Of a stretch of 64,000 bases of DNA, positions 10,413 through 31,140 are shown piece by piece. The notes beneath the pieces are model-generated. The model was not told the origin of the DNA. It ran no database searches and saw only the letters and a list, made by a program, of their open reading frames with translations. How positions within the stretch are numbered: the stretch's first letter is position 1; every line of letters begins with the position of its first letter. The DNA lies in assembly GCA_902601475.1 (NCBI GenBank), contig CACKNK010000002.1, forward strand, positions 135,739-199,738, read 5' to 3'. Both the position numbers and the translations under genes were made by a program. Source of the DNA: an uncultured SAR86 cluster bacterium (GTDB taxonomy: Bacteria > Pseudomonadota > Gammaproteobacteria > Magnimaribacterales > D2472).

Positions 10413-10511
10413 TGTATTAAAGGACTTTAATTGATTGATATTAAAGCATAAAAATAAATTGTTTGATGTTAATTTTTCTTTCGCCTAAGATACCTAAAAT
10501 TTATATTCATT

Positions 10512-14512: not shown

Positions 14513-16684
14513 ATGGACGTTTCATATATTTTAGAAAGCCTCAATGAAAAGCAGCGTGAGGCTGTTACATCTGAATCACCTCATCTGCTTGTTCTGGCTG
14601 GCGCTGGATCTGGAAAAACAAGAGTACTGGTGCATCGTGTAGCTTGGATTGTAGATGGATTCAGATCGAATCCTGGAACCATTATGACGGTTACCTTTAC
14701 CAATAAGGCTGCGAATGAAATGCAGAGCAGAATTCAGGAGCTGCTTAAATCACCTGTTCCAGAATTATGGTGCGGAACTTTCCATGGATTGGCACACAGA
14801 ACACTAAAAAGATTTTATAAAGAGGCAAATCTTATTTCAGGCTTCACGATTCTTGATGCAGACGACCAGCTCAGGATCATTAAAAGATTAGCCAAAGAGC
14901 TCGAGCTTGAAGATAGTGCATGGCCACCCAAGCAAATTCAATGGCAAATCAACTCATGGAAAGATGATGGAAAAAGATCAAAGGACATTAAGGCTGAAAA
15001 AGATTTCTATACCGAAACCATAAAAGGTCTTTATGAAAAATATGAAGATTTATGTAAGCAAGATAGCTTGGTTGATTTTGCTGAACTTTTGCTGAAAAGT
15101 TACGAGCTTATCCGTGATGATGGAAAGGTAAAGAAATTTTTTCATTCTCGATTTAAGCATATTCTTATCGATGAGTTTCAAGATACAAATAAGATTCAAT
15201 ATAAATGGCTACAAGAGATTGCTTCAAATGAAGCCAATCTGACCGCAGTGGGTGATGATGATCAATCAATCTACGGTTGGCGAGGAGCAAGGGTTGAAAA
15301 CATTGATGCTTATAAAAAATCTCATGATCAAAGTGAAACCATCAGGCTAGAACAGAACTATAGATCAACCAGTGTCATTCTTAATGCTGCGAATGCTCTA
15401 ATAGAAAATAACCAAGAAAGACTTGGCAAGAATTTATGGACTGACTCTAAAGAAGGTGAGTTGATCACGCTTTATCAAGCCTATAGTGAGCAAGATGAGG
15501 CTAGATTTATTGCTGAAGTTATCAAGGGCTGGATGAACAGTGGTGAGCTCTATAAAGATTGTGCGGTTGTGTATAGATCTAATGCTCAGTCTAGAGCAAT
15601 AGAAGAAGCATTATTGAGAATCAGTATTCCATATAGAATTTATGGCGGCTTACGATTTTATGAACGGTTAGAAATTAAAAATGCCATGAGTTTTTTAAAG
15701 GTGATTTTCAATCCACATGACAACCCATCATTTGAGCGCTCAATTGCAAATCCACCCAGAGGCATTGGAGCAAAGACGTTGATCAAAATTAGAAATAAAG
15801 CCAACGAGAATAATCTATCTTACGTTCAAGCTTCTGCAAAAATGCTTGATGAAGGTTTAATCGGCGGCAGAGGTGCTGCTGGCTTAAGATCTTATTTAAA
15901 GTTATTGATCGATCATGGCGAACAACTTGATAAGACTCCGTTATCCGATTTGCTTGATTCAATTATTCAATCATCAGGCTTAATTCAGCATCATGAAAAA
16001 GAACCTGGCGAAAAGGGTAAAACGAGAATAGAGAATTTGGAAGAACTGATCACGGCGGCCAAAAACTTTGAACAGAGTTTTGATAAAGAAAAAACAATTA
16101 AAGAAATCTCCGAATCATTTTTGGACACCGTATCTTTAGATGCGGGTGAGACTCAGGCTGGAGAATTTGACGATGCGGTCCAGCTGATGACATTGCATTC
16201 AGCCAAAGGTTTAGAGTTTCCTTTGGTATTTATGACTGGACTTGAGGAAACTCTGTTTCCTCATGGCAGATCGATGGAATCTCCTAATCAGTTAGAGGAG
16301 GAGAGGCGACTTTGTTATGTTGGTATCACCAGAGCAATGAAAAAACTTTATCTAACTTATGCAGAATCCAGAAGGCTTCACGGTTCTGATGTATTTAATC
16401 CGCCATCAAGATTTATTAAAGAAATACCCGCAGAATATATTGACGAGATTAGACCCAGAGCTTCAGTTAATGTTCCTTATAAAAGAACTTCACAATCAAG
16501 CCCGATGGATTTTAAAGAAGAGATTGGCATTGCGCTCGGCCAAAAAGTCTTGCATCCAAAATTCGGTCAAGGCATAGTTTTAAATTACGAAGGCTCAGGA
16601 GAGTCAGCAAGAGTGCAAATAAATTTTGAATCTGCTGGCACTAAGTGGCTGGTGCTTTCGTTTGCTAATCTTGAGGTAATTTAA
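14513..16684 (+). CDS. uvrD: DNA helicase II (UvrD, SF1)
   Basis: Walker A AGAGSGKTRVL, DEFQDTN, QNYRS, TLHSAKGLEF, RRLCYVGITRA. Confidence 0.9.
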   Translation: MDVSYILESLNEKQREAVTSESPHLLVLAGAGSGKTRVLVHRVAWIVDGFRSNPGTIMTVTFTNKAANEMQSRIQELLKSPVPELWCGTFHGLAHRTLKRFYKEANLISGFTILDADDQLRIIKRLAKELELEDSAWPPKQIQWQINSWKDDGKRSKDIKAEKDFYTETIKGLYEKYEDLCKQDSLVDFAELLLKSYELIRDDGKVKKFFHSRFKHILIDEFQDTNKIQYKWLQEIASNEANLTAVGDDDQSIYGWRGARVENIDAYKKSHDQSETIRLEQNYRSTSVILNAANALIENNQERLGKNLWTDSKEGELITLYQAYSEQDEARFIAEVIKGWMNSGELYKDCAVVYRSNAQSRAIEEALLRISIPYRIYGGLRFYERLEIKNAMSFLKVIFNPHDNPSFERSIANPPRGIGAKTLIKIRNKANENNLSYVQASAKMLDEGLIGGRGAAGLRSYLKLLIDHGEQLDKTPLSDLLDSIIQSSGLIQHHEKEPGEKGKTRIENLEELITAAKNFEQSFDKEKTIKEISESFLDTVSLDAGETQAGEFDDAVQLMTLHSAKGLEFPLVFMTGLEETLFPHGRSMESPNQLEEERRLCYVGITRAMKKLYLTYAESRRLHGSDVFNPPSRFIKEIPAEYIDEIRPRASVNVPYKRTSQSSPMDFKEEIGIALGQKVLHPKFGQGIVLNYEGSGESARVQINFESAGTKWLVLSFANLEVI

Positions 16685-17766
16685 TGAAAAAGTTTTGCGT
16701 ATCTTTTTTTGTTTTATTTTTAATTTCTTGTTCACAGGATTCTGTTCAGTCAGAAGTAGCTGTAAAGAAATTTAATTGGTCCATGGTAACCACGTGGCCA
16801 AAAAACTATCCTGGATTAGGGATGGCACCTGAGCGTTTTAGCAAAATGGTAAATGAGATGTCTCAAGGTCAACTGAAGATAACTGTTTATGGTGCCGGTG
16901 AATTTGTTCCCGCCATGGGAGTCTTCGATGCAGTTTCTTCGGGCTCAGTGGAAATGGGTCATGGCGGCGCTTATTACTGGAAAGGTAAGGTTCCTGCTGC
17001 ACAGTTCTTTGCAGGGGTTCCATTCGGATTCACAGCTGATGAAATTAATGCATGGGTTTATCGAGGCGGCGGTTTAGAGTTGTGGGAAGAAATTTATCAA
17101 CCCTTTAACATTAAACCCTTACCGGGTGGCAATACCGGCACCCAGATGTTTGGGTGGTTTAATAAGGAAATTAATTCACTTGCAGATCTGAAGGGTTTAA
17201 AAATGAGGTTTCCAGGTTTTGGAGGAGAGGTTTTTAAACGAGCAGGCGGCACACCGGTAAATATTCCTGGCGGCGAGCTGTATACAGCTATGCAAACGGG
17301 AACCATTGATGCAGTTGAGTGGGTGGGTCCATATAATGATCTCGCTTTTGGTTTTCAGCAAGTTGCAAAATATTATTATTATCCTGGTTGGCATGAGCCG
17401 GGGTCCATGCTTGAGTTTATGATCAACATTGATGAGTGGAATGGACTGCCTCCGCATTTACAAAAGATTGTTGAGGTTGCTGCCAAGGCAGTTAATCAAG
17501 ATCTTTTAGATGAATACACGGCTTCAAATAATCGAGCCTTACAGGAACTAATTAATACTCATGATGTTCAGTTAAGAAGATTACCCGATGATGTGATCAA
17601 TGAATTCAGAGCAATATCCGATGATATTTTGACATCCTCAGCAGAGAACGATGCAGATGTTAAAAAAGTTTATGAATCATTCAAAAAATTTATGGGAGAA
17701 GTTAGATCTTTTAATGCAATTGCCGAAGATGCATTTGTTGAAGCACGTAATTTGAGTGAAGAATAA
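16684..17766 (+). CDS. dctP: TRAP transporter substrate-binding protein (DctP family)
   Basis: Lipoprotein-like signal (LISCS). WPKNYPGLGMAPERF and GAYYWKGKVPAAQFF are typical of the COG4663-type TRAP SBP. TAATG overlap with the uvrD stop. Confidence 0.85.
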   Translation: MKKFCVSFFVLFLISCSQDSVQSEVAVKKFNWSMVTTWPKNYPGLGMAPERFSKMVNEMSQGQLKITVYGAGEFVPAMGVFDAVSSGSVEMGHGGAYYWKGKVPAAQFFAGVPFGFTADEINAWVYRGGGLELWEEIYQPFNIKPLPGGNTGTQMFGWFNKEINSLADLKGLKMRFPGFGGEVFKRAGGTPVNIPGGELYTAMQTGTIDAVEWVGPYNDLAFGFQQVAKYYYYPGWHEPGSMLEFMINIDEWNGLPPHLQKIVEVAAKAVNQDLLDEYTASNNRALQELINTHDVQLRRLPDDVINEFRAISDDILTSSAENDADVKKVYESFKKFMGEVRSFNAIAEDAFVEARNLSEE

Positions 17767-19369: not shown

Positions 19370-20215
19370 TCAACCCTCACTCAACCAATCATTTACCAAG
19401 TAGGAGGGAAACCAACCATCTTCTCCTTTTTCATGAGCTTCATACCACCCAGAACCACCTTGAAAATCTAGATGAAAATCATGTCGCTCACCTTTATAGT
19501 CAACCGCTCTGATAGTATCTTCATCAAATGGCTTATCTCTATTTTGACCCAAAATACCATCGAATACATTGCAATAGTAGAGCCATGAAAGGTCATATTC
19601 TTCATTGGTGTCAGGATTATCGATAATCAATTTTAGGTCTCTAAGCTTAAAATCGTTAGCTACTTCAAAAGAGGTGTGAAGGGTTCCAGAGGAATAAGGT
19701 ATAACTTCAAATATGACAGTATGCCCCTCTGCAATAGCTTCCTTAGCCCCCAAATGCTGGAAGTCATCGTCACCAATTGGTTTCCAAACACAATCATCTG
19801 CATCAACATTATCTGGAGAACCATATGGAAAACCATAGTCTGTAATAGCCATTTCGATATAGTCAGAGTTTTCAAAATCTTCCATTTCAGTATATTCAAA
19901 CATACACGGGAAAAATGCCTTCTCCTCTCCATCAATACTGGCAGTATATTTGCAGCCTTCATTTCGAGCTGCGATACCATGTGAAATCAATGTAACCTTA
20001 GAATGCTCCTCCACAATCTCTATTGGCTCTCGATAAATTAAACCATTAGCCTCATTTTCTTTTATGCGTTTTTTTTCCTCTTCATCCAATTCAGGTATTC
20101 CAGTTTCCTTAAAAACATTATTAGCATTTTCTTTTAGTAGTTCCTTAGTTGCTGCATCGATTTCGTATGCATAAACTTGGACTCCTGGTGCTTCAATTTT
20201 TAGCTCTAATTTCAT
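19370..20215 (-). CDS. Hypothetical acidic protein (281 aa), last gene of the island operon
   Basis: Long ORF. ATG at 20215 preceded by GGGGA. Asp/Glu-rich. No recognised domain. Confidence 0.5.
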   Translation of the reverse strand: MKLELKIEAPGVQVYAYEIDAATKELLKENANNVFKETGIPELDEEEKKRIKENEANGLIYREPIEIVEEHSKVTLISHGIAARNEGCKYTASIDGEEKAFFPCMFEYTEMEDFENSDYIEMAITDYGFPYGSPDNVDADDCVWKPIGDDDFQHLGAKEAIAEGHTVIFEVIPYSSGTLHTSFEVANDFKLRDLKLIIDNPDTNEEYDLSWLYYCNVFDGILGQNRDKPFDEDTIRAVDYKGERHDFHLDFQGGSGWYEAHEKGEDGWFPSYLVNDWLSEG

Positions 20216-20304
20216 AATTTTTATTTTCCCCAACTTTTAAAATTTAATACTTATTACCTTAGCAGCGATAATATTAATAGGGAAATAAAAAGATTCTGAG
20301 GTGA

Positions 20305-20646
20305 CTATTTAAGATGGATATTGCTACCTTTAGCTGAAAAATCAGCCGCATCAAATTCTTTTTTTTCTATATCATCGCCATAAATTCCAAACATACTGTC
20401 TTGTCCAGGCAGGTAAACAAAAATATACAAACCTCCTCTATTGTGAGCAAAGAAATGATTTTCTCCCCATGCCAACTCATTGGTTTTATAAAGAAAAATT
20501 ATATTTTTTTCTGGATGGTTAATGGGATAAAGGCTGTGTTCATTTCCTAAATCTCCAGTCTTAACAAGTTTTTCTCCGTTAAGGACATTCAAAAAATAAA
20601 CAATGGTGTTTGGTTTTGCATAGTAAATATTGGTTTTTGATTTCAA
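20305..20646 (-). CDS. Hypothetical protein (113 aa)
   Basis: ORF co-oriented with the operon. Only a TTG start is available and there is no clear SD. No recognised domain. Confidence 0.4.
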   Translation of the reverse strand: MKSKTNIYYAKPNTIVYFLNVLNGEKLVKTGDLGNEHSLYPINHPEKNIIFLYKTNELAWGENHFFAHNRGGLYIFVYLPGQDSMFGIYGDDIEKKEFDAADFSAKGSNIHLK

Positions 20647-20668
20647 ATTTTTTAAATACCAAAAATAA

Positions 20669-20905
20669 TTAATGTGCTAAATTAAAAATCACTACAAATA
20701 AGACTCCTGTAGCAAGGACCCCCAGTACACAGATCAACCAATCCACAAAGAACACTTTAAACAGCTTAGCCCAAACACCATCATGAGCTTCATTCGCTGT
20801 GAGTTCTTTTTTGAAGACCTCCATTGCTGCATCTTTAAAAAATGAAAAGACACACAAGAAAGTTAGGCCTCCCAAAAGAAATATAAATGCATTCGTATTG
20901 ATCAT
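20669..20905 (-). CDS. Small 2-TM membrane protein (78 aa)
   Basis: Two hydrophobic helices (AFIFLLGGLTFLCVFSFF and WLICVLGVLATGVLFVVIF). Strong SD AAGGAGAAAACC-ATG. ATGA overlap with the upstream gene. Confidence 0.55.
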   Translation of the reverse strand: MINTNAFIFLLGGLTFLCVFSFFKDAAMEVFKKELTANEAHDGVWAKLFKVFFVDWLICVLGVLATGVLFVVIFNLAH

Positions 20906-21231
20906 GGTTTTCTCCTTAAATTTATTAAAGCTTTAATTATTCTTGAAAGTTCCGCATCAGCCCTTCGGAAATTTGTTTTAGTTAATGTTCTTGCTTGCCA
21001 GTAATCCTCATAACCATCTTCCATCCATTGTTTTCGAAATAATTGAAAGGTCCTTTGCAGGTACTTCTGCAATAATCGGATATCTGCAATTGCGTTAAAA
21101 TTATTCTTTTTTAGCCACGATTCAACTTCAAAAGAATCACTCTGAGCAACTTTTTTTACAAACATTTCTAGAATAGTAGATAACTCAGTATTGATGTTTT
21201 TTAGATCTTTTATTGATTTTGAATCTTTCAT
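20902..21231 (-). CDS. Hypothetical helical protein (109 aa)
   Basis: ORF 7 nt downstream of the HAD gene and translationally coupled to the 2-TM gene. No recognised domain. Confidence 0.5.
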   Translation of the reverse strand: MKDSKSIKDLKNINTELSTILEMFVKKVAQSDSFEVESWLKKNNFNAIADIRLLQKYLQRTFQLFRKQWMEDGYEDYWQARTLTKTNFRRADAELSRIIKALINLRRKP

Positions 21232-21238
21232 GATTAAT

Positions 21239-21820
21239 TTAAAAATTTGTTCTCTTAATCATAGTATCATCAACATGTTTTGGAATAATCCTTATTTTGG
21301 GGAATACCTTTTTGAGCTGAATAAAGCTTTGAATATTATCCATAGAGTCGTCGAACAGATAAGCTGCTTGGTATTGATGAGATTTTAAATATTTACTGAT
21401 AATTAATTTTTTTGCTTCAGCAGTTTTTAGCTTAGCTAAGTTTCCTGCCCTTTCAACATAGATATGATTGATGTCTAATCCTGAGGAGTTTAGGTATTCA
21501 AGAAAAATATCTTTACAATCAAAATCGGATCTTGCTGTTAATAAAATTGTTTTGGAACCATGGGCAGCTTCTTTTATGCAATCCTGCGCCTTTTTAATAA
21601 TTGGATTGATTGGCTGTGACTCATTTACAAATTTTTTTGAGTCCTTGAACTCTGCAAAACAAATGGTTTCATCATCTTTTAACTTAAAGTCCTTTAATTC
21701 TTGCGAGTTTAAATATATTACTTTACCCTCGCTATTTTTTACTTTTGCTCTTGCGGTAGTTCGGAAAAGGGTGTCATCTATATCAAAAACATAGAGAGAT
21801 TTAATATGCCTTCTAGTCAT
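21239..21820 (-). CDS. HAD-superfamily phosphatase (small, capless type)
   Basis: Motif I VFDIDDTLF (DxDxT). Motif II ILLTARS. Motif III/IV K...YLFDDSMDN. Confidence 0.7.
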   Translation of the reverse strand: MTRRHIKSLYVFDIDDTLFRTTARAKVKNSEGKVIYLNSQELKDFKLKDDETICFAEFKDSKKFVNESQPINPIIKKAQDCIKEAAHGSKTILLTARSDFDCKDIFLEYLNSSGLDINHIYVERAGNLAKLKTAEAKKLIISKYLKSHQYQAAYLFDDSMDNIQSFIQLKKVFPKIRIIPKHVDDTMIKRTNF

Positions 21821-22304
21821 AGCTTTCAGAGCTCCAAATCATGTTAAGTTTATTTTTATCAAGCTCCCAAACTTCAACTTTTATGTTTGATGAAAATTCA
21901 AGCGTCAACCCATCTTCGGATAGATGATCTTTCTTATTCCACTGAATTAACATGGCTTTACAAGTATTTTCTTTGGATAAATGTTTGGCTCTAGATTTAA
22001 GATAAATCTTTAGTTGACTCAAGTACTCAATTTTATTTTCTAATGCTGCTTGTTTTGTCTCAATAATAAGGTCTTCTTTTATGCCAAAGTTTTTTTGTTG
22101 AGGTATATAAAAATCAGCAACAATATACCCAACCGGATGCTTTTTATATAACACATCAAGTGAAAGCTCTTTCTCGTAGGCAACTCTAGAATTTATGAAT
22201 TCAACTGCTAATGCAGCTTGCAAAACATTTTCTTTAAATCCTGCACCTAGCTCTCTTTGAATTCGTTTAGAGAGTTTGGTGACGTGTTTATAAAATTCTT
22301 TCAT
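21813..22304 (-). CDS. GxxExxY-family PD-(D/E)xK nuclease-fold protein
   Basis: ELGAGFKENVLQAALAVEF (GxxExxY-like, Y replaced by L), ADFYIP...LIIETKQ (D...E-x-K), YLSQLKIYL. Strong SD AAGGAGGA upstream. Confidence 0.6.
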   Translation of the reverse strand: MKEFYKHVTKLSKRIQRELGAGFKENVLQAALAVEFINSRVAYEKELSLDVLYKKHPVGYIVADFYIPQQKNFGIKEDLIIETKQAALENKIEYLSQLKIYLKSRAKHLSKENTCKAMLIQWNKKDHLSEDGLTLEFSSNIKVEVWELDKNKLNMIWSSESYD

Positions 22305-22339
22305 AGCAAATCCTCCTTAACTGTCTTGTTAATAATTTT

Positions 22340-23752
22340 TTATCCATAAGCATTTACCTCGATTTTATTTTTTATAAATTGCTCAACCCCCTGAATGATT
22401 TTTAGATCTGATGGTGAGGATCTATCTTCTATTAATTCCTCGGCTTCTTTTAAACATGCTGAGCTTGAAGGCCAAGGACCCTCAGATGTCCATCGTTCTC
22501 TAATTAACTCTTGATAATAAGAGGTGAGTTCAGTTGGAAGATCAGATTCATTTTTTTGGGATAAGATTCGGTAGCCAAACTCTTTTGCTCTAGGATCATT
22601 GAATTTTTTGCAAATAAATAACTGCTCTTCCAAGCTCTTTGAATTATGAAATTGTTCAAATAGTTTCTTATCTTCATAGTCGAAGAATTTTTCATAGATT
22701 GTCTCTTCAATAAGGTTTTTCTTTGGCCATTTTCTTTGTTCGGTTTCTGTAGATGCAACAAGAACTTTTTCAATCCAATCTTCATTCCTAGAGTAATTTT
22801 CGGCATTTGAATTCAGCTCTTTCATTGAGCAATCAAAATTGAAGTCAAATTCATTTGCGTCAGCCAAGCCGCTTGATCTATTCAGTCGAATAATTTTGAA
22901 GGGTGATTCAGTAAAAGGTTTTTCTAAAAACTTTGTGATCTCTTCATAACTAAGATTTAAAACTTCATCAACTGGATAGTTAAGGTCCACACATATGGCT
23001 TCATTTTGATTAGTTGGATTGATACCAACGAATTTAATGGGGTATGTCCAAAATCTAGCAAACGGCTGATATCGATAGCCAATTACTTTTGTGTTTTTTA
23101 AAAATTCAGCACAACCTTGTTTTGTTCCCTGGCTCAGAAAGTCTGTTACTAACTTTTCTGCTGATAAATGAAAAAAATTAAGTAACTCGATCATAAAAAT
23201 ACAATCTGATAATGCATCATGTGCATTAGTAGTATCGATGCCGATTCGTTCAGCTACCGAGGATAATGAACATACTGGATGCCCATTTGCATTTATTTCG
23301 AAGTCAATCATCTTTGGGAAGAGCTGACTAACCAATCTGGTTAGCATGAGTAAATCAGATCGGCCATTGCCGTTTGTATTTGTGATGAATGGATCCATTA
23401 AATTCCAAAAGAATTGACGCCTGTATAACTCTTCATCAAAGTTATGACCGTTATAAGTAATAAAAAGGGCAGGGCCATCATTGCTCCAATTTTTCCACTG
23501 ACCATGAATGGTTTTCATCATTTGATAATGTGTTTCTGAGCTAGATAAGGTTTCTATTTTCTTATGAGTTAAATATGCCCCAGGTGAAGGAACCACCCAG
23601 GGTAAGGGAGCACAAGAAACATTCATTGAATCTTGAATGTTGTAATTTTGATCTGTCACCACCGAAGCTGACTGTATTATTTGAATAAAATCTTTTGGAT
23701 CTTTTCCGGTGGTTTCAGTGTCACTAAAGATAAGCTTATTTTGAAATTTCAT
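22340..23752 (-). CDS. sbcB: Exodeoxyribonuclease I-like DEDDh 3'-5' exonuclease (SbcB homologue, divergent)
   Basis: Collinear with my recollection of E. coli ExoI. FSDTETTG (Exo I motif), YNGHNFDEELYRRQFFWNLMDPF (Exo II), GRSDLLMLTRL, NAHDALSDCIFMIEL (Exo III H-x4-D). C-terminal SH3-like/helical region PFKIIRLNRS. 470 aa. Confidence 0.8.
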   Translation of the reverse strand: MKFQNKLIFSDTETTGKDPKDFIQIIQSASVVTDQNYNIQDSMNVSCAPLPWVVPSPGAYLTHKKIETLSSSETHYQMMKTIHGQWKNWSNDGPALFITYNGHNFDEELYRRQFFWNLMDPFITNTNGNGRSDLLMLTRLVSQLFPKMIDFEINANGHPVCSLSSVAERIGIDTTNAHDALSDCIFMIELLNFFHLSAEKLVTDFLSQGTKQGCAEFLKNTKVIGYRYQPFARFWTYPIKFVGINPTNQNEAICVDLNYPVDEVLNLSYEEITKFLEKPFTESPFKIIRLNRSSGLADANEFDFNFDCSMKELNSNAENYSRNEDWIEKVLVASTETEQRKWPKKNLIEETIYEKFFDYEDKKLFEQFHNSKSLEEQLFICKKFNDPRAKEFGYRILSQKNESDLPTELTSYYQELIRERWTSEGPWPSSSACLKEAEELIEDRSSPSDLKIIQGVEQFIKNKIEVNAYG

Positions 23753-24359
23753 TTAATTTTCCTTTTTTATATGAATAGGTTGTTACTTTTTGATCAGCCT
23801 GATCGGTGAAACGCAAGACATCTCCATCCCTTTTGTCTTCGTGCCAATAAGTTAATGAATTTAATCTGCCATCAGGATAGAAGTAAGTTGCTTTGCCATG
23901 TTTTTTTCCAGCTAAGAAGTTGTACTCTCTCCATTTATGGAAATTACTGAGAAAATGAATGAACCTGCCATGCAATAAACCATTGTTAAAATCGGCACTA
24001 ATTTCAATTGATCCATCCTCATGATATGTTTCATAAGTGCCGGTGAACTCAACAACGATGCATTTATTTATAGGTGTTTCATTTGATGGCTCACGAAGAA
24101 TTTCTTTATTATCAATGAGCTTTAAATCCATATATCTACAGAACTTTCCATTTAAATAAAACAAATCCAGCTTGGAATTTTCTCTCAGGACAAATCCAAG
24201 ATTACGATGATCGAATTCTTTATCCCATTCACATTCCAATTCAAATCGAATATCTTCATAATTAGCGTCTTCATCAATCAAATCCTTTTTCTTTTCCAAA
24301 GCTTTTTCACGATCGATGAGCTTTTGTTTGTATTCTTTGAGGTAGATAACTTTTTGCAT
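23736..24359 (-). CDS. MORN-repeat (YwqK-like) protein, first gene of the operon
   Basis: Repeats of the G-x-x-H/K-G...Y...G type: NGLLHGRFIHF, AGKKHGKATYFYPDGRL, EDKRDGDVLRF. Overlaps the ExoI start by 17 nt. Confidence 0.6.
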   Translation of the reverse strand: MQKVIYLKEYKQKLIDREKALEKKKDLIDEDANYEDIRFELECEWDKEFDHRNLGFVLRENSKLDLFYLNGKFCRYMDLKLIDNKEILREPSNETPINKCIVVEFTGTYETYHEDGSIEISADFNNGLLHGRFIHFLSNFHKWREYNFLAGKKHGKATYFYPDGRLNSLTYWHEDKRDGDVLRFTDQADQKVTTYSYKKGKLNEISK

Positions 24360-24383
24360 ATAGATTTATTATGCTTTACCTAT

Positions 24384-24400
24384 ACGACATATAATGTCGT
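24384..24400. promoter_or_regulatory. Operator candidate 1: palindrome ACGACATATAATGTCGT
   Basis: Perfect 7-bp arms around ATA. Lies 24 nt upstream of the MORN-operon start codon (24359, minus strand). Contains a TATAAT hexamer. Confidence 0.6.
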
Positions 24401-24450
24401 CTTTAAAAACATATTCTTAATTTTTGTATTAAAGATAGTAAATTATTGTA

Positions 24451-24467
24451 ACGACATATAATGTCGT
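24451..24467. promoter_or_regulatory. Operator candidate 2: identical palindrome ACGACATATAATGTCGT
   Basis: Identical 17-mer, 67 bp centre-to-centre from copy 1. Ends 13 nt before the WYL-regulator ATG. Followed by TATATGA. Confidence 0.6.
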
Positions 24468-24480
24468 ATATGATCTTGCT

Positions 24481-25482
24481 ATGAATAATGATACATCCTT
24501 ACGTTATTTAGAAATGCTTCAATACTTGCCTGTATATCCTGCTAAAAGATCTTTATCTGAGATTCGATCTCATTTATCGGAGTACGGACATTCGGTGAGC
24601 GATAGAACAATTCAGCGAGACCTTAGAAAGCTTGAAGGATCGTTTGGATTATATTGTGATGATCGGAGTATTCCTCATGGTTGGTGCTGGATGAAGGATG
24701 CAAAAAGGGTAGACATTGCTGCAATGGATCATGCAGAAGCGCTTACCTTGAGTCTTGCTAAAAAATATCTCTCTAGTGTACTGCCTCTTCAGCACTCCTC
24801 TAGAATAACTGGCCTGTTTAAGAGAGCCGAAGCTTTTTTGAATCAAACCCAAAGCTCTGACCTAATAAAATGGAATGATAAAGTAAGAGTAGTGCCTGCT
24901 AGCCATGAATACATAGGCCCAAAAATAAAAGGGGATATTCAACAAGTCATTTATGAAGCAGTCCTTAGAGAAAAAAAATTCAGTGGTAGCTATCAGTCTA
25001 GAGAATCACAAAAACCCAAAAAAGGAATTTATAATCCGTTGGCTATAATTTCACATGGTGTTGTAACGCGAGTCATCTGCACTAGAGAATTAAAAGGAGA
25101 GGCTGATAACTTAATTAGGTATTTACCCCTTCACAGATTTAAATCTGCAAGCCCCTTAGAGGATTCGATCAATATACCAAAAGAATTTGACCTTGATGAA
25201 TATCTTGATAAAGGCGAACTGAATTACTTATACGATAAAGAAATCGATTTGCATTTGGAGTTTTCTCAGAGTGCAGGCTCGCATTTAATTGAGACGCCTT
25301 TTTCTAAAAATCAATCTATAAAAATCATAAAAAATGGATTTATTATTCTTAAAGCAAAGACTCCTTATACAGAAACACTTAAGAGGTGGATTCTTGGTTT
25401 TGGTGACCAAGTAAGAGTATTAGGTCCTTCAAACCTTAAAAAAGAAATTCAAGAAATACATAAAAGATCCATCAAGAAATAG
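24481..25482 (+). CDS. HTH-WYL-WCX transcriptional regulator (BrxR/CapW/PafBC-like)
   Basis: N-terminal wHTH LSEIRSHLSEYGHSVSDRTIQRDLRKLE. Central WYL-type SH3 barrel FSGSY...YNPLAIISHGVVTRVICT...IRYLPLHRFKS. C-terminal WCX LKRWILGFGDQVRVLGPSNLKKEI. Confidence 0.8.
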   Translation: MNNDTSLRYLEMLQYLPVYPAKRSLSEIRSHLSEYGHSVSDRTIQRDLRKLEGSFGLYCDDRSIPHGWCWMKDAKRVDIAAMDHAEALTLSLAKKYLSSVLPLQHSSRITGLFKRAEAFLNQTQSSDLIKWNDKVRVVPASHEYIGPKIKGDIQQVIYEAVLREKKFSGSYQSRESQKPKKGIYNPLAIISHGVVTRVICTRELKGEADNLIRYLPLHRFKSASPLEDSINIPKEFDLDEYLDKGELNYLYDKEIDLHLEFSQSAGSHLIETPFSKNQSIKIIKNGFIILKAKTPYTETLKRWILGFGDQVRVLGPSNLKKEIQEIHKRSIKK

Positions 25483-25506: not shown

Positions 25507-26787
25507 TCAATTTAAGATATCTGTAATATTTAAATCCCTATTCTCATTACCTAAAATTTTTATTTCCAACGGAGAGAATACTTTGCTGGTTTTAGGATGA
25601 TCAAGAAGATATTTATAAGCAAGGGAAAATTCAAAATTTTCAAATTTTTCATATTTTTTTTCCTTCCCTTCTTTTTTGGCTTCTCTAGCAAGTCTTTTTT
25701 CAACTAGGTTTTTTCGCTTTAGACCAAGAAGCTTTCTTGAGTTATCATTTTCTCGAAGCTCCAAACTCATCCTAATTGATGTTATATCTCTTAATGATGC
25801 CAGCACCTTTAATGATATTGGTTCTTTAAATTCTTTCTCTTTTTCGGGCTCCTTGGGATCGTAACTATCTAATCTCGTAAAGTTCTCTAATTTGTCTATC
25901 AGTCTATTAATTCCTCCTAATACGCATTCTTCATAAAGCTTAAATTCAGTAGAGCTTGTTAACCAATAGCTCTGGGCAGACTCTGCTTTTTCACCAGGTT
26001 TATATAATGTTTTTCTAAATCTTGATGCAAGCAAATTCATCCCAAATATTGTTGCTTTAATAGGATTTTCAAAAGCATATTGTTCTTGCTCGTTTTTTGA
26101 ATTCCTATTTCCATAAGGGTTAATTCCATTCAATAATAATAGAGCCCTAATTAATATTGTTCTTTCAACCAGTGCTTGAGGCGTATCATAAATACCATGT
26201 TTGTAGATAAAATTATGATTAAATATCTCTTGCTCTCTATCCTGAAAACTTTTGGTAGTATCTGGTTTTGTATCACTTATGATTTTTTCCACAAACGATC
26301 TAAGATCAGTGTCGTTAATTTTTTTTAATAACAAAGAATCTGGTATTTCTCTTTCATAACTCATCTTTAACAAATCTGAAATTTCCATATCTTCTTTAAA
26401 TGCATTTTCTGCTGATTCTTTTGCATTTTTAAGATCCCAAGTTTTTTTATATAGACTGTTTTCATATTCTTGTTGTCGACATGATGCATATATTGTCCAG
26501 ATATCCTCTAACCATGTGCGAGGCTCATCAAATCGTATTTTTATTTGAGTGCCAACCATGTAATAACAAATATCATTCATTAATTTTTCTTTAACTTGAG
26601 CAAATTTACTGTGCTGCATCTTATTTTTTTCATCAAATAAGTCAGGATTTTCTCTTTTATGTCTAATATTTTTACCCAGGAAATACTCATCAATAATTTT
26701 CTCTATGCCTGCAAATTTACCATTAAGGGTTCTTATTTGACTTCTACAGAATTGAAGAACTGAATTTTTGCTATCATATTTCGCCAT
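25507..26787 (-). CDS. Hypothetical protein (426 aa), no recognised domain, Lys/Glu-rich C-terminal segment
   Basis: Uninterrupted 426-codon ORF with an ATG start, convergent with the WYL gene. Predicted mostly helical. KE-rich stretch LAREAKKEGKEKKYEKFE. Confidence 0.6.
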   Translation of the reverse strand: MAKYDSKNSVLQFCRSQIRTLNGKFAGIEKIIDEYFLGKNIRHKRENPDLFDEKNKMQHSKFAQVKEKLMNDICYYMVGTQIKIRFDEPRTWLEDIWTIYASCRQQEYENSLYKKTWDLKNAKESAENAFKEDMEISDLLKMSYEREIPDSLLLKKINDTDLRSFVEKIISDTKPDTTKSFQDREQEIFNHNFIYKHGIYDTPQALVERTILIRALLLLNGINPYGNRNSKNEQEQYAFENPIKATIFGMNLLASRFRKTLYKPGEKAESAQSYWLTSSTEFKLYEECVLGGINRLIDKLENFTRLDSYDPKEPEKEKEFKEPISLKVLASLRDITSIRMSLELRENDNSRKLLGLKRKNLVEKRLAREAKKEGKEKKYEKFENFEFSLAYKYLLDHPKTSKVFSPLEIKILGNENRDLNITDILN

Positions 26788-26847
26788 TTAATTATTTTAC
26801 ATTAAAATTAATAATTACAAAAAGTTAAAATTATTTATAATTTCTTG

Positions 26848-26876
26848 TTGACATTATTACTAGCAGAGTCTAAATT
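26848..26876 (+). promoter_or_regulatory. Sigma70-type promoter candidate for the acidic-protein genes
   Basis: TTGACA (26848-26853), 17-nt spacer, TAAATT (26871-26876), about 47 nt upstream of the ATG at 26924. Confidence 0.45.
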
Positions 26877-26923
26877 ATTGCCCTCCAATTTTGGAAAATA
26901 TAAAAAATTTTAAAGGAAATAAT

Positions 26924-27205
26924 ATGGCTACAATTAAATATATGCAACTCGAAAAACATCAGGTCTCAGTCAGGAAGGGTATGATCGCTACTACTGAAGA
27001 TTGGGACGGTAACGAGGTAGTATCAGAAGAGGATCTAAGAACTTTTCTAGAAGAAGGCACTACAGGCAATGATGAAACAGACGATATATGCTTAGAACAA
27101 GTCCAAGATTCAGAATGTGTGACTGACAGAGACGAGGATTGGATTAGTGACAGGAAGGGTTATACGGAGGTGGAGTATTACTCAATAGGTCAAGAATTTG
27201 AATAA
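26924..27205 (+). CDS. Small highly acidic protein (93 aa)
   Basis: ATG at 26924 with SD AAAGGAA. Runs of D/E (EEDLRTFLEEGTTGNDETDDICLEQVQDSECVTDRDEDW). Confidence 0.55.
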   Translation: MATIKYMQLEKHQVSVRKGMIATTEDWDGNEVVSEEDLRTFLEEGTTGNDETDDICLEQVQDSECVTDRDEDWISDRKGYTEVEYYSIGQEFE

Positions 27206-27220
27206 ATAAAAACTAACTTT

Positions 27221-27245
27221 TCAAGCTGAACTAAGTTCAGCTTGA
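27221..27245. repeat. Perfect 25-nt inverted repeat (11-bp stem, 3-nt loop)
   Basis: TCAAGCTGAAC-TAA-GTTCAGCTTGA, 15 nt after the stop of the 93-aa gene. No U-tract follows. Confidence 0.6.
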
Positions 27246-27266
27246 GCTAACAACACAGACAAAAAT

Positions 27267-27695
27267 ATGAATTTAAACAAAGACTATGATTGGGCCAGGG
27301 TTATTGGTAAAAGAGATAGTTTACTAATGCAATCAATGGAAGACGATATGAGCCAGGTAATCTTAGATTATCTAGGGGTTGAAAGTGAGGAGGATGTTTC
27401 AAAAGAACATGTCGAGGAACTTTTGGAGATTAGAAAATTTCTAGAAACACCTTTTAGCGAAGGTGGTAAGGGGTTTACCTTAAGTAGTTCACCACATTTT
27501 GAGGTTTTGTATAACTCAATCCAGATGTTGGCAGATGAGATCTTAGAAGAGGCCGAAGGAGTTTCACAAGAAGGAAAAATTGTTAACATTAACAAACAGC
27601 CTAATCAGCCACCTGAAATTAATCTTGATGATGAGTCAATGTGGGATGAGTTAATAGATGAAATGATAGAGGAAGATAAAGATAAGAAGAATTAA
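27267..27695 (+). CDS. Small acidic protein (142 aa)
   Basis: ATG start. D/E-rich throughout, with C-terminal DDESMWDELIDEMIEEDKDKKN. Confidence 0.55.
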   Translation: MNLNKDYDWARVIGKRDSLLMQSMEDDMSQVILDYLGVESEEDVSKEHVEELLEIRKFLETPFSEGGKGFTLSSSPHFEVLYNSIQMLADEILEEAEGVSQEGKIVNINKQPNQPPEINLDDESMWDELIDEMIEEDKDKKN

Positions 27696-27779
27696 TATAA
27701 AAGACACCAAAAAAAGAGTCATATCAACTTAACCTATGACTTAGAAGAAATTTAAAACCATAATAAAAAGGAGAACATT

Positions 27780-27842
27780 ATGAGATTAATTTTAGGAATA
27801 GCACAAGAAGAGCTTTTTAGTAGTTGTTTTAACAATGTGTAG
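27780..27842 (+). CDS. 20-codon mini-ORF (MRLILGIAQEELFSSCFNNV) with strong SD, upstream of the GIY-YIG gene
   Basis: AAGGAG 6 nt before the ATG. Stop lies 33 nt before the 27876 ATG. Too short for the ORF track. Confidence 0.3.
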   Translation: MRLILGIAQEELFSSCFNNV

Positions 27843-27875
27843 AATTAAATTTTTTAATAAAAGGGATGAAATTAT

Positions 27876-28793
27876 ATGAGTTGGAGTGAGTTTAGACCTT
27901 TTACTGATTATATTGATATCAAACATTTCACTGGTTACTCTGGTGGTGGAAAAAATATTTGGAAAACCAAATTACAAGAAGAAGCTAATAAAGAACCAGA
28001 TCTTTTGAGCTTTTCTCAAGCAGAAGGGTGCACACCAGTCAAAGGGGGTGTTCTCGATTATAGAAAAGATAATAGCTCTGGGGAATGCCCTGAAATTACA
28101 TGTGGAATTTACTTTATTCGTATTGATGATGAGAGCGCTAAACATAACGAAGAAACTCCATCTGGATATTATGATTACATTGGTTTGTCATCTAATTTCA
28201 CTAAAAAAACTTTTCAATCCGGCATCTATGGAAGACTATATGATCATTACAGGAAATTAGTATGCCTCCCTAAAAGAGGTAATTTTGGCGAGTTAATTAT
28301 AAGAAATCATTTTAAAGATATTAACTTAAGTAATTTGAATAAAGGCCAGAAAAAGGCTCTACTCAAAAAACATCAACTTAAAGCTATAGAACATCTCCAG
28401 AAGCAATCTTTTGAAGATTACCAAAAACTAAGAGACTATTTTGGGGGAGACGATATAGGTAATAATCTAGATTTATACGGCACTACTGAATACTTCTTTA
28501 AAGCTTTTAAAGCATGCAGTGAAACAAATGATCTGAATACAATTAATGGAATTAAACATTTTTTCAAAGAAAAAGTACATCTTTCATTTTATAAACATAC
28601 ATTTGGTGGTGAAGATCAGTTTCGTTCAAAAGGTAATAACCCGCAAATAAATGAGTCGTGGAAGAAGTTCGTCGAATTTATTGCAAAAGGAGAAGGGGTA
28701 GCTTTAGCAGCTTATAAAAATATAAATGGAAAGTTACCATATTTAAATAAGAGAGATGAGATAAAAAACCTTGATATTCTGCCCAACCACTGA
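27876..28793 (+). CDS. GIY-YIG-like nuclease-domain protein with a large internal insertion
   Basis: CGIYFIRI...YYDYIGLSS...SGIYGRLYDHYRKL (GIY, YIG, Arg-x3-His). A distal E/N region EFIAKGEGVALAAYKNINGKLPYLN lies about 170 aa later. Between them is a K-rich helical insert. Confidence 0.5.
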   Translation: MSWSEFRPFTDYIDIKHFTGYSGGGKNIWKTKLQEEANKEPDLLSFSQAEGCTPVKGGVLDYRKDNSSGECPEITCGIYFIRIDDESAKHNEETPSGYYDYIGLSSNFTKKTFQSGIYGRLYDHYRKLVCLPKRGNFGELIIRNHFKDINLSNLNKGQKKALLKKHQLKAIEHLQKQSFEDYQKLRDYFGGDDIGNNLDLYGTTEYFFKAFKACSETNDLNTINGIKHFFKEKVHLSFYKHTFGGEDQFRSKGNNPQINESWKKFVEFIAKGEGVALAAYKNINGKLPYLNKRDEIKNLDILPNH

Positions 28794-28940
28794 CGTCATT
28801 TTAACAGTAACATCACCAGTTAAACTTTACGAAAAGAATTTAATCAACCACCTCACATCGAAGAAAATTAATAAGGATAATTTTTCAGACTTGCTAGGTA
28901 GATCAAGAGTTAATTTAATCAAAGATTAATTTTCTCTATA

Positions 28941-28957
28941 ACGACAATATGTGTCGT
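28941..28957. promoter_or_regulatory. Operator candidate 3: ACGACAATATGTGTCGT
   Basis: Same 6-bp arms ACGACA/TGTCGT with a 5-nt spacer. Ends 23 nt before the ATG at 28981. Followed by GTATATGA, similar to copy 2. Confidence 0.55.
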
Positions 28958-28980
28958 GTATATGAGTTCTAATAGAACAT

Positions 28981-29487
28981 ATGAAAAAAAATACTGATAA
29001 CTGGTTAAATGTACGGGCAAACTCGAGCATATCATTTAATAATATAACCATCCATAATTCAAAGTATGTGAAAGTTAGCTCGATTAAGGTAACAATTTCA
29101 CTTCATTACTCTGATGATGATGGTACTTGCGTTTTTTTAACTAAAAATCCTCAACTTATTCATATGATGATTGATCGATGTGAAATTGAAAGAAACTTGC
29201 CTTATGGGGAGTGGGAAAAAACCGTTAGATCAATTCTTTTTAAAGAAAAAGGAATAAAAAATAGCGACCTTGATCAGTTTGTTAGTTGGAACCTAGCAAA
29301 CCCATCATTCTCACTGGCAAAGTATAGAAAATGCACAAAAAAAGAAATTGATGCTTTCAGATTTCATCGTGCTGATCAAAGAAGCGAAATTTTGTCTGGT
29401 AATGATAAGGTGGTTTATCAGCAATACATTAAAGCATCCTATAACGACCAAGACAGTTCAGTACCTCACAACTTTGTTATGCCATAG
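28981..29487 (+). CDS. Hypothetical protein (168 aa)
   Basis: ATG ORF directly downstream of operator copy 3. No recognised domain. Confidence 0.55.
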   Translation: MKKNTDNWLNVRANSSISFNNITIHNSKYVKVSSIKVTISLHYSDDDGTCVFLTKNPQLIHMMIDRCEIERNLPYGEWEKTVRSILFKEKGIKNSDLDQFVSWNLANPSFSLAKYRKCTKKEIDAFRFHRADQRSEILSGNDKVVYQQYIKASYNDQDSSVPHNFVMP

Positions 29488-29811: not shown

Positions 29812-31140
29812 TTATAAAATTACAAATGGAAAAACTATAACAAATAGCAAAACCAATATTTGGATGATGATAAAAGGAATAACTCCTCTATAAATATCTG
29901 TAGTTTTAATGCTCGCGTCAGCAACCCCTCTCAAGTAAAACAAAGAAAATCCAAAGGGCGGTGTAAGGAAGGATGTCTGTAAGTTGATGGCCATTAATAT
30001 TCCAAGCCAGACAGGATCAAAGCCCATCATTAATAAAGGCGGAGCCACTAGTGGAATAATGACATAACAGATTTCAATGAAATCCAAAATAAAGCCAAAA
30101 AGAAAGATGGCAAAAAGGATAAAGAATAGGGCAGTGTATTTCCCACCTGGCATCATCTCAAAAATTTGATCAACTAAGAGATCACCACCCACTCCTCTAA
30201 AAATTAGTGAAAAAATTGAAGCTCCAATAAGGATGCTAAATATCATGGTGGTAACGGTTGCTGCCTTATAACTGGTTGCTTTAATAAGCTCTAAGTTAGC
30301 ATTGCCATTAATGGCAGCAATAATGAGTGCTCCAAGAGCACCCACTCCAGCAGCTTCAGTAGGCGTTGCTATACCTCCAATAATTGATCCGAGCACAACA
30401 AAAATTAGAGTGGCTGGGGGCAGTAGGGTTTTGAGAATGTTGGCTTCACCTTTAGTTTCTTCAATGACAACAAACTCTTTTTTCCTATTTATTAATATTG
30501 TGTAGATCAAATAGCCAATTACTATCATTAGGCCAGGGACAACCGCTCCAACAAATAAATCACCCACAGAGACCGTTTCCTGAGAGAACACTCCAAGATT
30601 ATTTTGCGCTCTTTGATAGGCATTCGACATCACATCACCGAGCAGTACCAACGCAATTGAGGGCGGAATAATTTGTCCCAATGTTCCTGTTGAAGCAACC
30701 AAGCCGGAGGCAAAGTCCTTGTCATAACCTTGTTTCAACATCGCTGGTAAAGACATTAGTCCCATGGTTACAACGGTAGCACCCACAATTCCAGTGCTGG
30801 CTGCTAAAAGTGCCCCCACAACAATTATTGAAATACTCAATCCCGAATTAGTATTTTTAAAAACGATTGCCATATCTCTTAGCATTTTGGAGGCAATGCC
30901 TGACCTCTCTAAAACCACTCCCATAAACACAAACAAAGGAACAGCCAAAAGCGTTTGATTATTCATGATCCCAAAAAGTCGCATGGGCAAAGTCTTAAAT
31001 AAATTAGCATCAAAGAAACCAAAAACGGTTCCTAGAAGAGCAAATAATATAGAGGTGCCCGCCAAGGTAAATGCAACTGGATACCCGACTAGCAGCGCCA
31101 TGCAAATTAGAGCAATTAAGAGAATGGGGATTATTTCCAT
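29812..31140 (-). CDS. dctM: TRAP transporter large permease (DctM family)
   Basis: About 12 TM helices. N-terminus MEIIPILLIALICMALLVGYPVAFTLAG and the LFVFMG/GIATPTEAAGVGA regions are typical of DctM. Confidence 0.9.
   Translation of the reverse strand: MEIIPILLIALICMALLVGYPVAFTLAGTSILFALLGTVFGFFDANLFKTLPMRLFGIMNNQTLLAVPLFVFMGVVLERSGIASKMLRDMAIVFKNTNSGLSISIIVVGALLAASTGIVGATVVTMGLMSLPAMLKQGYDKDFASGLVASTGTLGQIIPPSIALVLLGDVMSNAYQRAQNNLGVFSQETVSVGDLFVGAVVPGLMIVIGYLIYTILINRKKEFVVIEETKGEANILKTLLPPATLIFVVLGSIIGGIATPTEAAGVGALGALIIAAINGNANLELIKATSYKAATVTTMIFSILIGASIFSLIFRGVGGDLLVDQIFEMMPGGKYTALFFILFAIFLFGFILDFIEICYVIIPLVAPPLLMMGFDPVWLGILMAINLQTSFLTPPFGFSLFYLRGVADASIKTTDIYRGVIPFIIIQILVLLFVIVFPFVIL

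Follow-up and report, generated by a model that had tools for sequence, protein, structure and literature searches.

An operon of eight genes, found in a stretch of 64,000 nucleotides (nt) from contig CACKNK010000002.1 of an uncultured SAR86 cluster bacterium (hereafter the window), is probably the local regulon of a DNA-damage regulator. The eight open reading frames (ORFs), which we number G1 to G8 in the order of their transcription, all lie on the minus strand at 19370-24359, as a preliminary description of this DNA had reported, and they adjoin a divergent gene for a regulator whose winged helix-turn-helix (wHTH) domain is followed by WYL and WCX domains. We put a probability of roughly 60% on the reading that this regulator is a WYL factor of the DriD/DdaA type, and that the locus is a damage module that would be activated by single-stranded DNA (ssDNA) and be independent of LexA. 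Few heterotrophs of the sunlit ocean are more abundant than the SAR86 bacteria. They cannot be grown, so to our knowledge there is no account of how they sense and repair DNA damage caused by ultraviolet (UV) light or oxidation. The source was confirmed as SAR86 by a scan of species-representative genomes, where the exonuclease I (ExoI) of the operon is 91-98% identical to that of three SAR86 single-cell genomes.

In the 121-bp spacer between the WYL gene and G1, the first gene of the operon, the same palindrome, ACGACATATAATGTCGT, occurs twice, at 24384-24400 and at 24451-24467. These are the centres of a proximal operator, box 1 (24382..24402, AGACGACATTATATGTCGTAT on the minus strand), and a distal one, box 2 (24449..24469, ATACGACATTATATGTCGTTA on the minus strand), which lies 11 nt upstream of the WYL start codon. 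A third palindrome, ACGACAATATGTGTCGT at 28941-28957, belongs to box 3 (28939..28959, plus strand, TAACGACAATATGTGTCGTGT). It is found at the far end of the genomic island that hosts the operon, 24 nt before a gene for a protein of 168 amino acids (aa) at 28981..29487 on the plus strand. All three boxes are exact instances of ACGAC-N7-GTCGT, of which the window contains three against 0.13 expected, and each of them stands in the island immediately before a gene: G1, the WYL gene or the 168-aa gene. Relaxed motif searches of the window added no further sites. The palindromes carry the CGAC-N7-GTCG core of the operator, and they match both the consensus of DriD, the damage activator of Caulobacter (ATACGAC-N7-GTCGTAT; PMC10853764), and the motif of DdaA, the damage activator of Acinetobacter (CGWCA-N5-TGWCG; PMC12392091). 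The core of box 3, CGACAATATGTGTCG, is letter-for-letter the DdaA site of the Acinetobacter baylyi aciT promoter (PMC13010146). The 168-aa gene is therefore a further predicted member of the regulon; its product has no match in Pfam, PADLOC or PHROG.

Toward G1, box 1 (AGACGACATTATATGTCGTAT) is followed by 8 bp, a putative -10 hexamer CATAAT (promoter P1; 24368..24373, minus strand), 8 nt and the ATG. Relatives carry TATAAT, CATAAT or CATACT in the place of this hexamer, always with the 8-bp spacing. On the operon strand box 2 is likewise followed by 8 bp and then TACTAT (24435-24440), a position at which relatives have TATTCT, TATACT or TATAAT with the same spacing, and downstream of box 3 come 8 bp, the hexamer TCTAAT, 7 nt and an ATG. 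There is no TTGACA-like hexamer in the -35 register (CATTAT stands there at P1) and no extended -10. The same register is known from the CCNA_03891 promoter of Caulobacter, which was studied by cryo-EM and consists of a 21-bp box, 8 bp and a -10, ATACGACCGTTTCTGTCGCAA-TGCGCGGA-CAATCT; an optimised -35 was placed at box positions 7-12 of that promoter (PMC13004042). The boxes of the window share with it both the 8-bp spacing and the missing -35. Throughout the loci that we fetched from metagenomes, a -10-like hexamer (TATAAT, CATAAT, TATTCT, TACTAT, TATCCT, TAAAAT, TATAGT, TATACT, CATACT or TACAAT) is found at exactly 8 bp on the gene-facing side of nearly every intergenic box, and is usually absent from the opposite side. 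Since the -35 is missing and the box occupies the position from which DriD activates, activation is likelier than repression. The preliminary description had envisaged an operon derepressed by the WYL regulator, and the promoter anatomy speaks for the opposite sign of control. That the operon is under WYL control in the first place, as was also proposed there, is supported by the conserved operators between the two genes.

Only 6-9 nt separate the -10 hexamer from the ATG, and some targets in other lineages have a similarly short interval. This implies that the predicted mRNAs of G1 and the 168-aa gene would be leaderless or nearly so, and the lack of a ribosome-binding site upstream of G1 fits such an mRNA. 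In the direction of the WYL gene, box 2 is located between the two halves of a promoter-like pair, TTGTAA...TATGAT, so autoregulation of the regulator is possible. In DNA as rich in AT as this, a general scan for promoters and terminators carried no information (37 promoter-like sites, with 44.6 expected), and Rfam models identified no structured RNA in the island. In one sub-clade the ExoI gene contains a further CGAC-N7-GTCG match, ATTCGACTCAATAGGTCGCAT, some 860 nt from the start of its coding sequence (L049 position 905, L054 7194, L060 3014, L061 4889 and L063 4152). We rejected it as a promoter because it fits neither CGWCA-N5-TGWCG nor the -10 spacing; it is probably a coding coincidence.

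The regulator itself (24481..25482, plus strand, 333 aa) matches the Pfam families WCX (1.5e-11) and WYL (1.3e-3) and the WYL models of PADLOC (3e-20). When a profile of seven orthologues was compared with solved structures, the top five matches were all DriD (7u02, 7tzv, 9cu3, 9pfq and 8tp8). PafC was marginal in the same search (E = 0.62), and BrxR and CapW were not among its significant matches. The recognition helix R42-T-I-Q-R46 is invariant among the orthologues. In DriD the bases are read by Arg37 and Arg41, within an R-T-x-(E/Q)-R pattern (PMC10853764). R42 and R46 share the spacing of this pair, although the N-terminal domain has no significant alignment with DriD. In a partial alignment, R213, R219 and Y251 stand opposite the DriD residues R204, R210 and Y240 that contact ssDNA, while DriD R207 is without a counterpart.

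The genes of the operon are consistent with a role in the processing of DNA ends. The junctions from G1 to G8 measure -17, +35, -8, +7, -4 (an ATGA overlap), +22 and +89 nt, exactly as had been described, and AAGGAG or GGAG sites precede G2, G3, G4 and G6. The earlier domain calls were reproduced as well. G1 (23736-24359, 207 aa) is a MORN-repeat protein with matches to MORN_2 (1.8e-5, below the Pfam cut-off) and MORN (7e-4). G2 (22340-23752, 470 aa) belongs to the exonuclease I (SbcB) family: it matches Exonuc_X-T_C (3.8e-17) and RNase_T (6e-6) in Pfam, its DEDDh motifs are intact (FSDTETTG, FDEE and HDALSD), and phmmer finds solved ExoI structures, though only at E about 1e-17. Its match to the NCBIfam ExoI model covers the full length (residues 4-463) at 140 bits, against an equivalog cut-off of 260. 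G2 is best described as a divergent ExoI family that appears specific to SAR86 and its relatives. G3 (21813-22304, 163 aa) is a PD-(D/E)xK protein of the PDDEXK_3/GxxExxY family, with scores above the cut-offs of both PF13366 (2.7e-12, 47.5 bits, cut-off 22) and TIGR04256 (8.6e-11, 42.2 bits, cut-off 35) and an invariant catalytic triad, D64 and E82-x-K84.

G4 (21239-21820, 193 aa) is a phosphatase of the HAD superfamily. It has a DxDxT motif (DIDDT) and matches HAD_SAK_1 weakly (7.5e-4) and, best of all, phrog_415 (7e-7), a family of phage polynucleotide kinases; from sequence, it resembles the phosphatase part of a phage polynucleotide kinase. In keeping with that match, relatives of G4 that are 35-41% identical occur on IMG/VR viral contigs of 20-358 kb (L020-L024). 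No other gene of the operon stands alongside them, and relatives of G8 and of the 168-aa protein were not found on viral contigs. Searches against solved structures gave nothing useful for G3 or G4.

The remaining proteins are harder to place. G5 (20902-21231, 109 aa) is basic, G7 (20305-20646) is an ORFan of 113 aa and G8 (19370-20233, with an ATG start at 20215; 281/287 aa) is an acidic ORFan; scans of domain libraries found no family match for any of the three. G5 matches only 12 clusters among 1.84 billion representative proteins. G6 (20669-20905, 78 aa), which overlaps G5 by the ATGA, has hydropathy peaks at residues 5-25 and 50-76, which correspond to two predicted transmembrane segments. 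A homologue search with a joined query of G8, the 168-aa protein, G5, G7 and G1 returned two matches only, both to G8. The whole length of G8 aligns, at 34% identity, with the N-terminal 280 residues of two proteins of 637-664 aa (P0241 and P0242), the remainder of which consists of DUF4116 repeats. G8 is thus the stand-alone version of a domain that larger repeat proteins contain elsewhere. AlphaFold2 models were unusable, with a confidence score (pLDDT) of 36 for G8 (from a three-sequence alignment) and 38 for G1 (from a single sequence).

Conservation of gene order is a further line of evidence. Five genomes or metagenome-assembled genomes (MAGs) share the order WYL, MORN, ExoI, PDDEXK_3, HAD, G5 and G6, in some followed by G7 and G8. 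In addition, we fetched 66 metagenomic loci with a G3 profile, and the fractions given here count only those with enough flanking sequence. HAD directly follows G3 in 52/60 loci, ExoI is upstream of it in 39/43, and the WYL and MORN genes are each upstream in 13/14. Downstream, G5 and G6 were each found in 7/9 loci, G8 in 3/9 and G7 in 0/9. The recurrence of the order in SAR86 genomes and in these loci shows that it is not a chance arrangement. Box 1 is kept in all members of the clade. Box 3 is kept before the 168-aa orthologue in L001, L002, L006-L008 and L042; every one of these orthologues, which are 62-98% identical, has the box and sits at that end of the island which adjoins dctM.

The conserved core therefore consists of the WYL, MORN, ExoI, PDDEXK_3 and HAD genes, and G7 and G8 are strain-variable passengers. 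Only the closest relatives have G7 (91-95% identical); L001 and L002 lack it, as do all nine more distant loci with enough downstream sequence. G8 varies in presence and position, and lies on the opposite strand in L066 and L068. G5 and G6 behave differently from both. They occur together in 35/40 loci, with three more cut by a contig end, and appear to be a separable sub-operon under the same control. Between HAD and G5, relatives carry 0-5 kb of variable cargo, nearly all of it ORFans; with Pfam, PADLOC and PHROG models, hardly any match was found in this cargo or in the flanking ORFs. Where such cargo splits G5-G6 from HAD, a fresh box and -10 are found before G5-G6, or before a 167-aa gene and G5-G6, in at least 13 loci. 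This is our best evidence that G5 and G6 have been selected to stay under the regulator; there is no comparable evidence for G7 or G8. The cargo after HAD in L001 (12707-18001), L040, L043, L057, L058 and L082 includes strain-specific genes of up to 575 aa, and a gene of 243-246 aa (MKLTAYTDSKLQFFYLDQ...) recurs in it just before the new box.

The proposed unit of eight genes is thus not fixed: G1-G4 form a stable core, G5-G6 can be separated from it but keep the same control, and G7 and G8 come and go between strains. In addition, the 168-aa gene is a predicted ninth target beyond the interval given for the operon, and most relatives have a gene of 88 aa between ExoI and PDDEXK_3 (L001 11406-11672) that is missing here; the window and its closest clade have a 35-nt gap (22305-22339) instead. 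The 88-aa product, which is 35% identical to that of a 77-aa gene before PDDEXK_3 in L025 and has no family match, may be a nuclease partner or inhibitor that was lost in the clade of the window. In L002, a MAG from the Fram Strait, the MORN gene (9394-10017) has three in-frame stops and was called as two short ORFs, which points to a pseudogene or else to an error of assembly.

The box and its spacing are not limited to this island. They recur beside WYL relatives down to 34% identity, and these relatives always adjoin genes for nucleases, namely ExoI, an RNase T-like exonuclease, PDDEXK_3, PDDEXK_1, RmuC or an AddAB-like enzyme. The simplest case is that of L004, L009 and L010, where one box separates a WYL gene (45% identical) from a divergent ExoI gene beside rpoD and dnaG, with nothing else. 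L025 and L090 (WYL 49%) have no ExoI, and their box precedes MORN, a 77-aa gene and PDDEXK_3. The MORN protein there is 33-35% identical to G1 and, as here, is encoded by the first gene after the box. In L027 and L089 (WYL 42-43%) a perfect ATACGACATTTAATGTCGTAT precedes the RNase T-like exonuclease. In L027 this gene is followed by PDDEXK_1, and a second box stands before PDDEXK_3, which is 74% identical to G3 where the regulator is only 43% identical; PDDEXK_3 has its own box and -10 hexamer in both L027 and L086. Other combinations are PDDEXK_1 in L097 (WYL 45%), RmuC in L098 and L099 (WYL 34%) and, with no clear box, an AddAB-like helicase-nuclease in L029 and L030 (WYL 35%).

The ExoI gene can also be found apart from the regulator. 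In other SAR86 lineages an ExoI orthologue that is 44-46% identical stands alone among metabolic genes. These housekeeping contexts suggest that G2 belongs to the lineage's own sbcB family and is not an imported defence gene. L018 has no WYL gene nearby, yet a box, 8 bp, TAAAAT, 6 nt and an ATG precede a membrane protein gene that is coupled to ExoI, so ExoI may be a member of the regulon there with the regulator encoded elsewhere. This locus (9232-11377) is from a different SAR86 lineage; the membrane protein is a multi-pass protein of 237 aa, and its gene shares 4 nt with that of ExoI. In L099 (11463-11483) and L098 (487-507), boxes of equal spacing stand before targets of two sorts: a 131-aa gene next to a restriction-modification (RM) system of the NgoFVII type, and an operon in which a 69-aa gene is followed by WYL, a 112-aa gene, RmuC, a gene of 1071 aa and a helicase gene. 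These are hints that defence-like genes are at times among the targets of this regulator family.

The mechanism that we infer for this locus is as follows. ssDNA, whether from DNA damage or from any other exposure, would bind the WYL/WCX part of a dimeric regulator. The wHTH domains, once freed, would bind the 21-bp palindromes over the missing -35 position, 8 bp upstream of the -10, and by recruiting RNA polymerase the regulator would turn on the two tandem promoters of the operon and the third promoter of the 168-aa gene. The proximal operon promoter and that of the 168-aa gene would give leaderless or nearly leaderless mRNAs. Of the products, the HAD enzyme G4 would clean blocked 3′ ends in the manner of polynucleotide 3′-phosphatases, ExoI would digest 3′ single-stranded tails, and the PDDEXK_3 enzyme would supply an endonuclease activity, with the MORN-repeat protein as a partner or scaffold. 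G5 and the two-transmembrane G6 might give the response an output at the membrane, perhaps, in the way of DidA or AciT, a block of cell division induced by damage, and G7 and G8 would be strain-specific passengers.

Several points weigh against this reading. All the evidence for it is comparative. The similarity between the regulator and DriD is weak (E about 5e-4) and covers the C-terminal 115 residues only, and a search of the PDB with its N-terminal 100 residues was without result. Many WYL/YafY regulators have the R-T-x-x-R helix motif, which is hence unspecific. A site over the -35 position would suit a repressor too. The repair genes recA, uvrA and ssb lie outside the window, and uvrD, which is in it, has no box. 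In Acinetobacter DdaA also controls defence genes, so a box of the DdaA type is compatible with a defence role. Four of the eight proteins are without a predicted function, and the supporting loci, for the most part drawn from a single SAR86 population, are not independent of each other.

A rather different view is that this is a new anti-phage or anti-mobile-element system, as had also been suggested. Here phage ssDNA would trigger the WYL factor, the nucleases would degrade foreign or host DNA and the two-transmembrane protein would be an abortive-infection effector. PADLOC matches only three proteins of the locus: ExoI, which fits best a model of SbcB associated with reverse transcriptases (RTasSbcB, 7e-55), G3, a weak match to HamA (2.5e-3), and the regulator through its WYL models. 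Like defence hot-spots, the island is hypervariable and hosts strain-specific ORFan cargo. DdaA drives CRISPR, RM and Zorya genes in Moraxellaceae (PMC12392091), SbcB modulates DRT10 defence in Escherichia coli (bioRxiv 10.64898/2026.04.29.721553), and the distant relatives L098 and L099 adjoin a large helicase and an RM system. However, there is no reverse-transcriptase domain among the 14 island proteins and no other known defence component, and we rejected an SbcB system linked to a defence-associated reverse transcriptase for that reason. No named defence system was detected with PADLOC, in agreement with the preliminary description; 10 further flanking and cargo proteins gave no match, and neither did the 20 cargo and flanking proteins considered in weighing this view. 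Moreover, ExoI belongs to the SAR86 sbcB family, with its housekeeping contexts elsewhere, the nearest solved relative of the regulator is the damage activator DriD rather than BrxR or CapW, and the WYL-ExoI pair stands alone beside rpoD and dnaG. We therefore regard a dedicated defence system as unlikely. Slightly more doubtful is a WYL protein that acts as a repressor of the CapW/BrxR type on core-promoter boxes, from which ssDNA would release it to derepress the operon. The boxes do overlap the region that RNA polymerase must occupy, box 2 lies between the -35-like and -10-like hexamers of the WYL promoter, and WYL repressors that sense ssDNA are documented (PMC11662680). Against this, promoters with no recognisable -35 and no extended -10 would be weak unaided, the spacing from box to -10 is that of promoters for which activation by DriD was shown by cryo-EM and reporters (PMC13004042), and DdaA, which reads the same motif, is also an activator.

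It could also be argued that there is no eight-gene system at all, that only ExoI or perhaps G1-G4 are regulated, and that the rest is cargo of a hypervariable region transcribed by accidental read-through. The restriction of G7 to the closest strains, the variation of G8 in presence, place and strand, the 0-5 kb inserts after G4 and the missing 88-aa gene would all agree with this. But wherever G5-G6 have been split off from G4 they have regained a box promoter, in other lineages a box precedes G3 itself, and MORN and PDDEXK_3 accompany the regulator in a lineage without ExoI at the locus; we consider this account the least probable of those discussed. A bolder proposal keeps the regulator as a sensor of ssDNA but treats the island as an expression platform, in which box-dependent promoters would drive a stable nuclease core together with freely exchanged, strain-specific ORFan cassettes, and G5-G6 would be a new effector pair. 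The pair is found in SAR86 only and keeps WYL control wherever it moves; it could be a previously unknown inhibitor of division induced by damage, or the membrane component of a new nuclease-based abortive-infection system. We offer this as speculation and think it rather improbable.

Returning to the damage-response reading, it is useful to compare the locus with known systems. The mechanism of DriD was established between 2014 and 2026 and that of DdaA in 2025-2026. DriD is alike in many respects. Both regulators have about 330 aa and a wHTH-WYL-WCX architecture, both use the operator ATACGAC-N7-GTCGTAT with an AT-rich centre, placed over an absent -35 and 8 bp from the -10, and in both a box near the regulator's own start codon drives a divergent operon. 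The targets correspond in kind: an ssDNA exonuclease (recJ for DriD, ExoI for SAR86), an endonuclease (bapE and PDDEXK_3) and a small membrane protein (didA and, possibly, G6). They are not homologous to the DriD targets, however, and the similarity of the regulators is the weak, C-terminal one given above. The SAR86 host is a gammaproteobacterium with a GC content of 36%, its locus has two tandem boxes, and the mRNAs from two of its three promoters appear to be leaderless. The SAR86 targets are clustered in one hypervariable island, whereas those of DriD are scattered.

DdaA, which has replaced LexA in Acinetobacter and other Moraxellaceae, is a gammaproteobacterial WYL activator, as the SAR86 regulator would be, the comparison being one of operator motifs and not of protein sequence. 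The three boxes of the window fit CGWCA-N5-TGWCG, with box 3 identical to the site at aciT. Where LexA has been kept, DdaA governs just a few genes, among them those for the nucleases RecC and SbcC (recC, sbcC). The known DdaA targets (recA, ssb, uvrA, aciT and CRISPR/RM genes) are not in this window. We found no statement in the literature on the presence of LexA in SAR86. PafBC of mycobacteria, which the preliminary description had put forward as the analogue, is a WYL activator triggered by ssDNA, as is predicted for SAR86; its motif replaces the -35, and it induces repair genes independently of LexA. However, it is a heterodimer that reads a non-palindromic motif and does not bind DNA without RNA polymerase, so that DriD and DdaA are the closer comparison. 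The wider idea of a LexA-independent damage module for DNA-end processing is supported by the DriD/DdaA operator and geometry and by the nuclease neighbours; for a new anti-phage system the PADLOC results, an SbcB of the reverse-transcriptase type without its partner and a weak HamA, give no support. BrxR and CapW resemble the SAR86 regulator in being WYL proteins divergent from or upstream of a variable cluster, with a palindromic operator and a response to ssDNA (in SAR86 a predicted one), but they are repressors beside recognisable defence genes (BREX, CBASS), of which this locus has none, and the SAR86 promoter anatomy favours activation. Finally, G2 is like E. coli exonuclease I (SbcB) over its full length, with the DEDDh domain and the SH3-like and C-terminal domains of ExoI, but differs in being placed under a WYL-type operator and in being translationally coupled to a MORN protein.

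The operon is part of an island some 10 kb long, flanked by lipA (end at 19320) and dctM (start at 29812). Its GC content of 31-34% is lower than the 36% of the host, and the lipA-to-dctM island is found in the five genomes or MAGs. No integrase domain was identified among the island proteins, the window has no tRNA genes, and no meaningful repeats flank the island; given the lack of an integrase, att-like repeats and a tRNA gene, we rejected the idea that this is a prophage or an integrative element. Four further ORFans (25507-28793) separate the WYL gene from that for the 168-aa protein, one of 426 aa on the minus strand and then three of 104, 142 and 305 aa on the plus strand. Their products have no match in Pfam, PADLOC or PHROG, and those of 104 and 142 aa are strongly acidic. 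These ORFans vary between strains far beyond the operon, with 25-96% identity, or are absent. The genes of a TRAP transporter are split around the island, dctP being upstream of lipB and lipA (16684-17766) and dctQ and dctM across the island on the opposite strand (29812-31583). The same layout is seen in L002.

What, then, does this locus add? The regulatory mechanism itself is of a known kind, that of DriD and DdaA. Its apparent presence in SAR86 is new, as are the exact and conserved spacing from box to -10, the targets that seem to be leaderless, the recurrent set of putative targets (a 3′-5′ exonuclease, PDDEXK_3, MORN and HAD) and the probable coupling of a damage-type activator to a hypervariable island of ORFans. 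If this reading is correct, the DriD/DdaA mechanism and its unusual promoter spacing would extend from Caulobacter and Acinetobacter to streamlined marine bacteria. The operator, the predicted activator and a short list of targets provide a handle on the response, both for metatranscriptomes taken over day and night or under UV light and for experiments in vitro with a 21-bp oligonucleotide (ATACGACATATAATGTCGTCT). They also point to candidate repair genes, namely ExoI, the RNase T-like exonuclease, PDDEXK_3, PDDEXK_1, RmuC, the MORN protein and the small ORFans. We know of nobody who has linked a MORN-repeat protein or these small ORFans to DNA repair. For the biology of SAR86 itself, the results suggest that part of its hypervariable island is expressed only under DNA stress.

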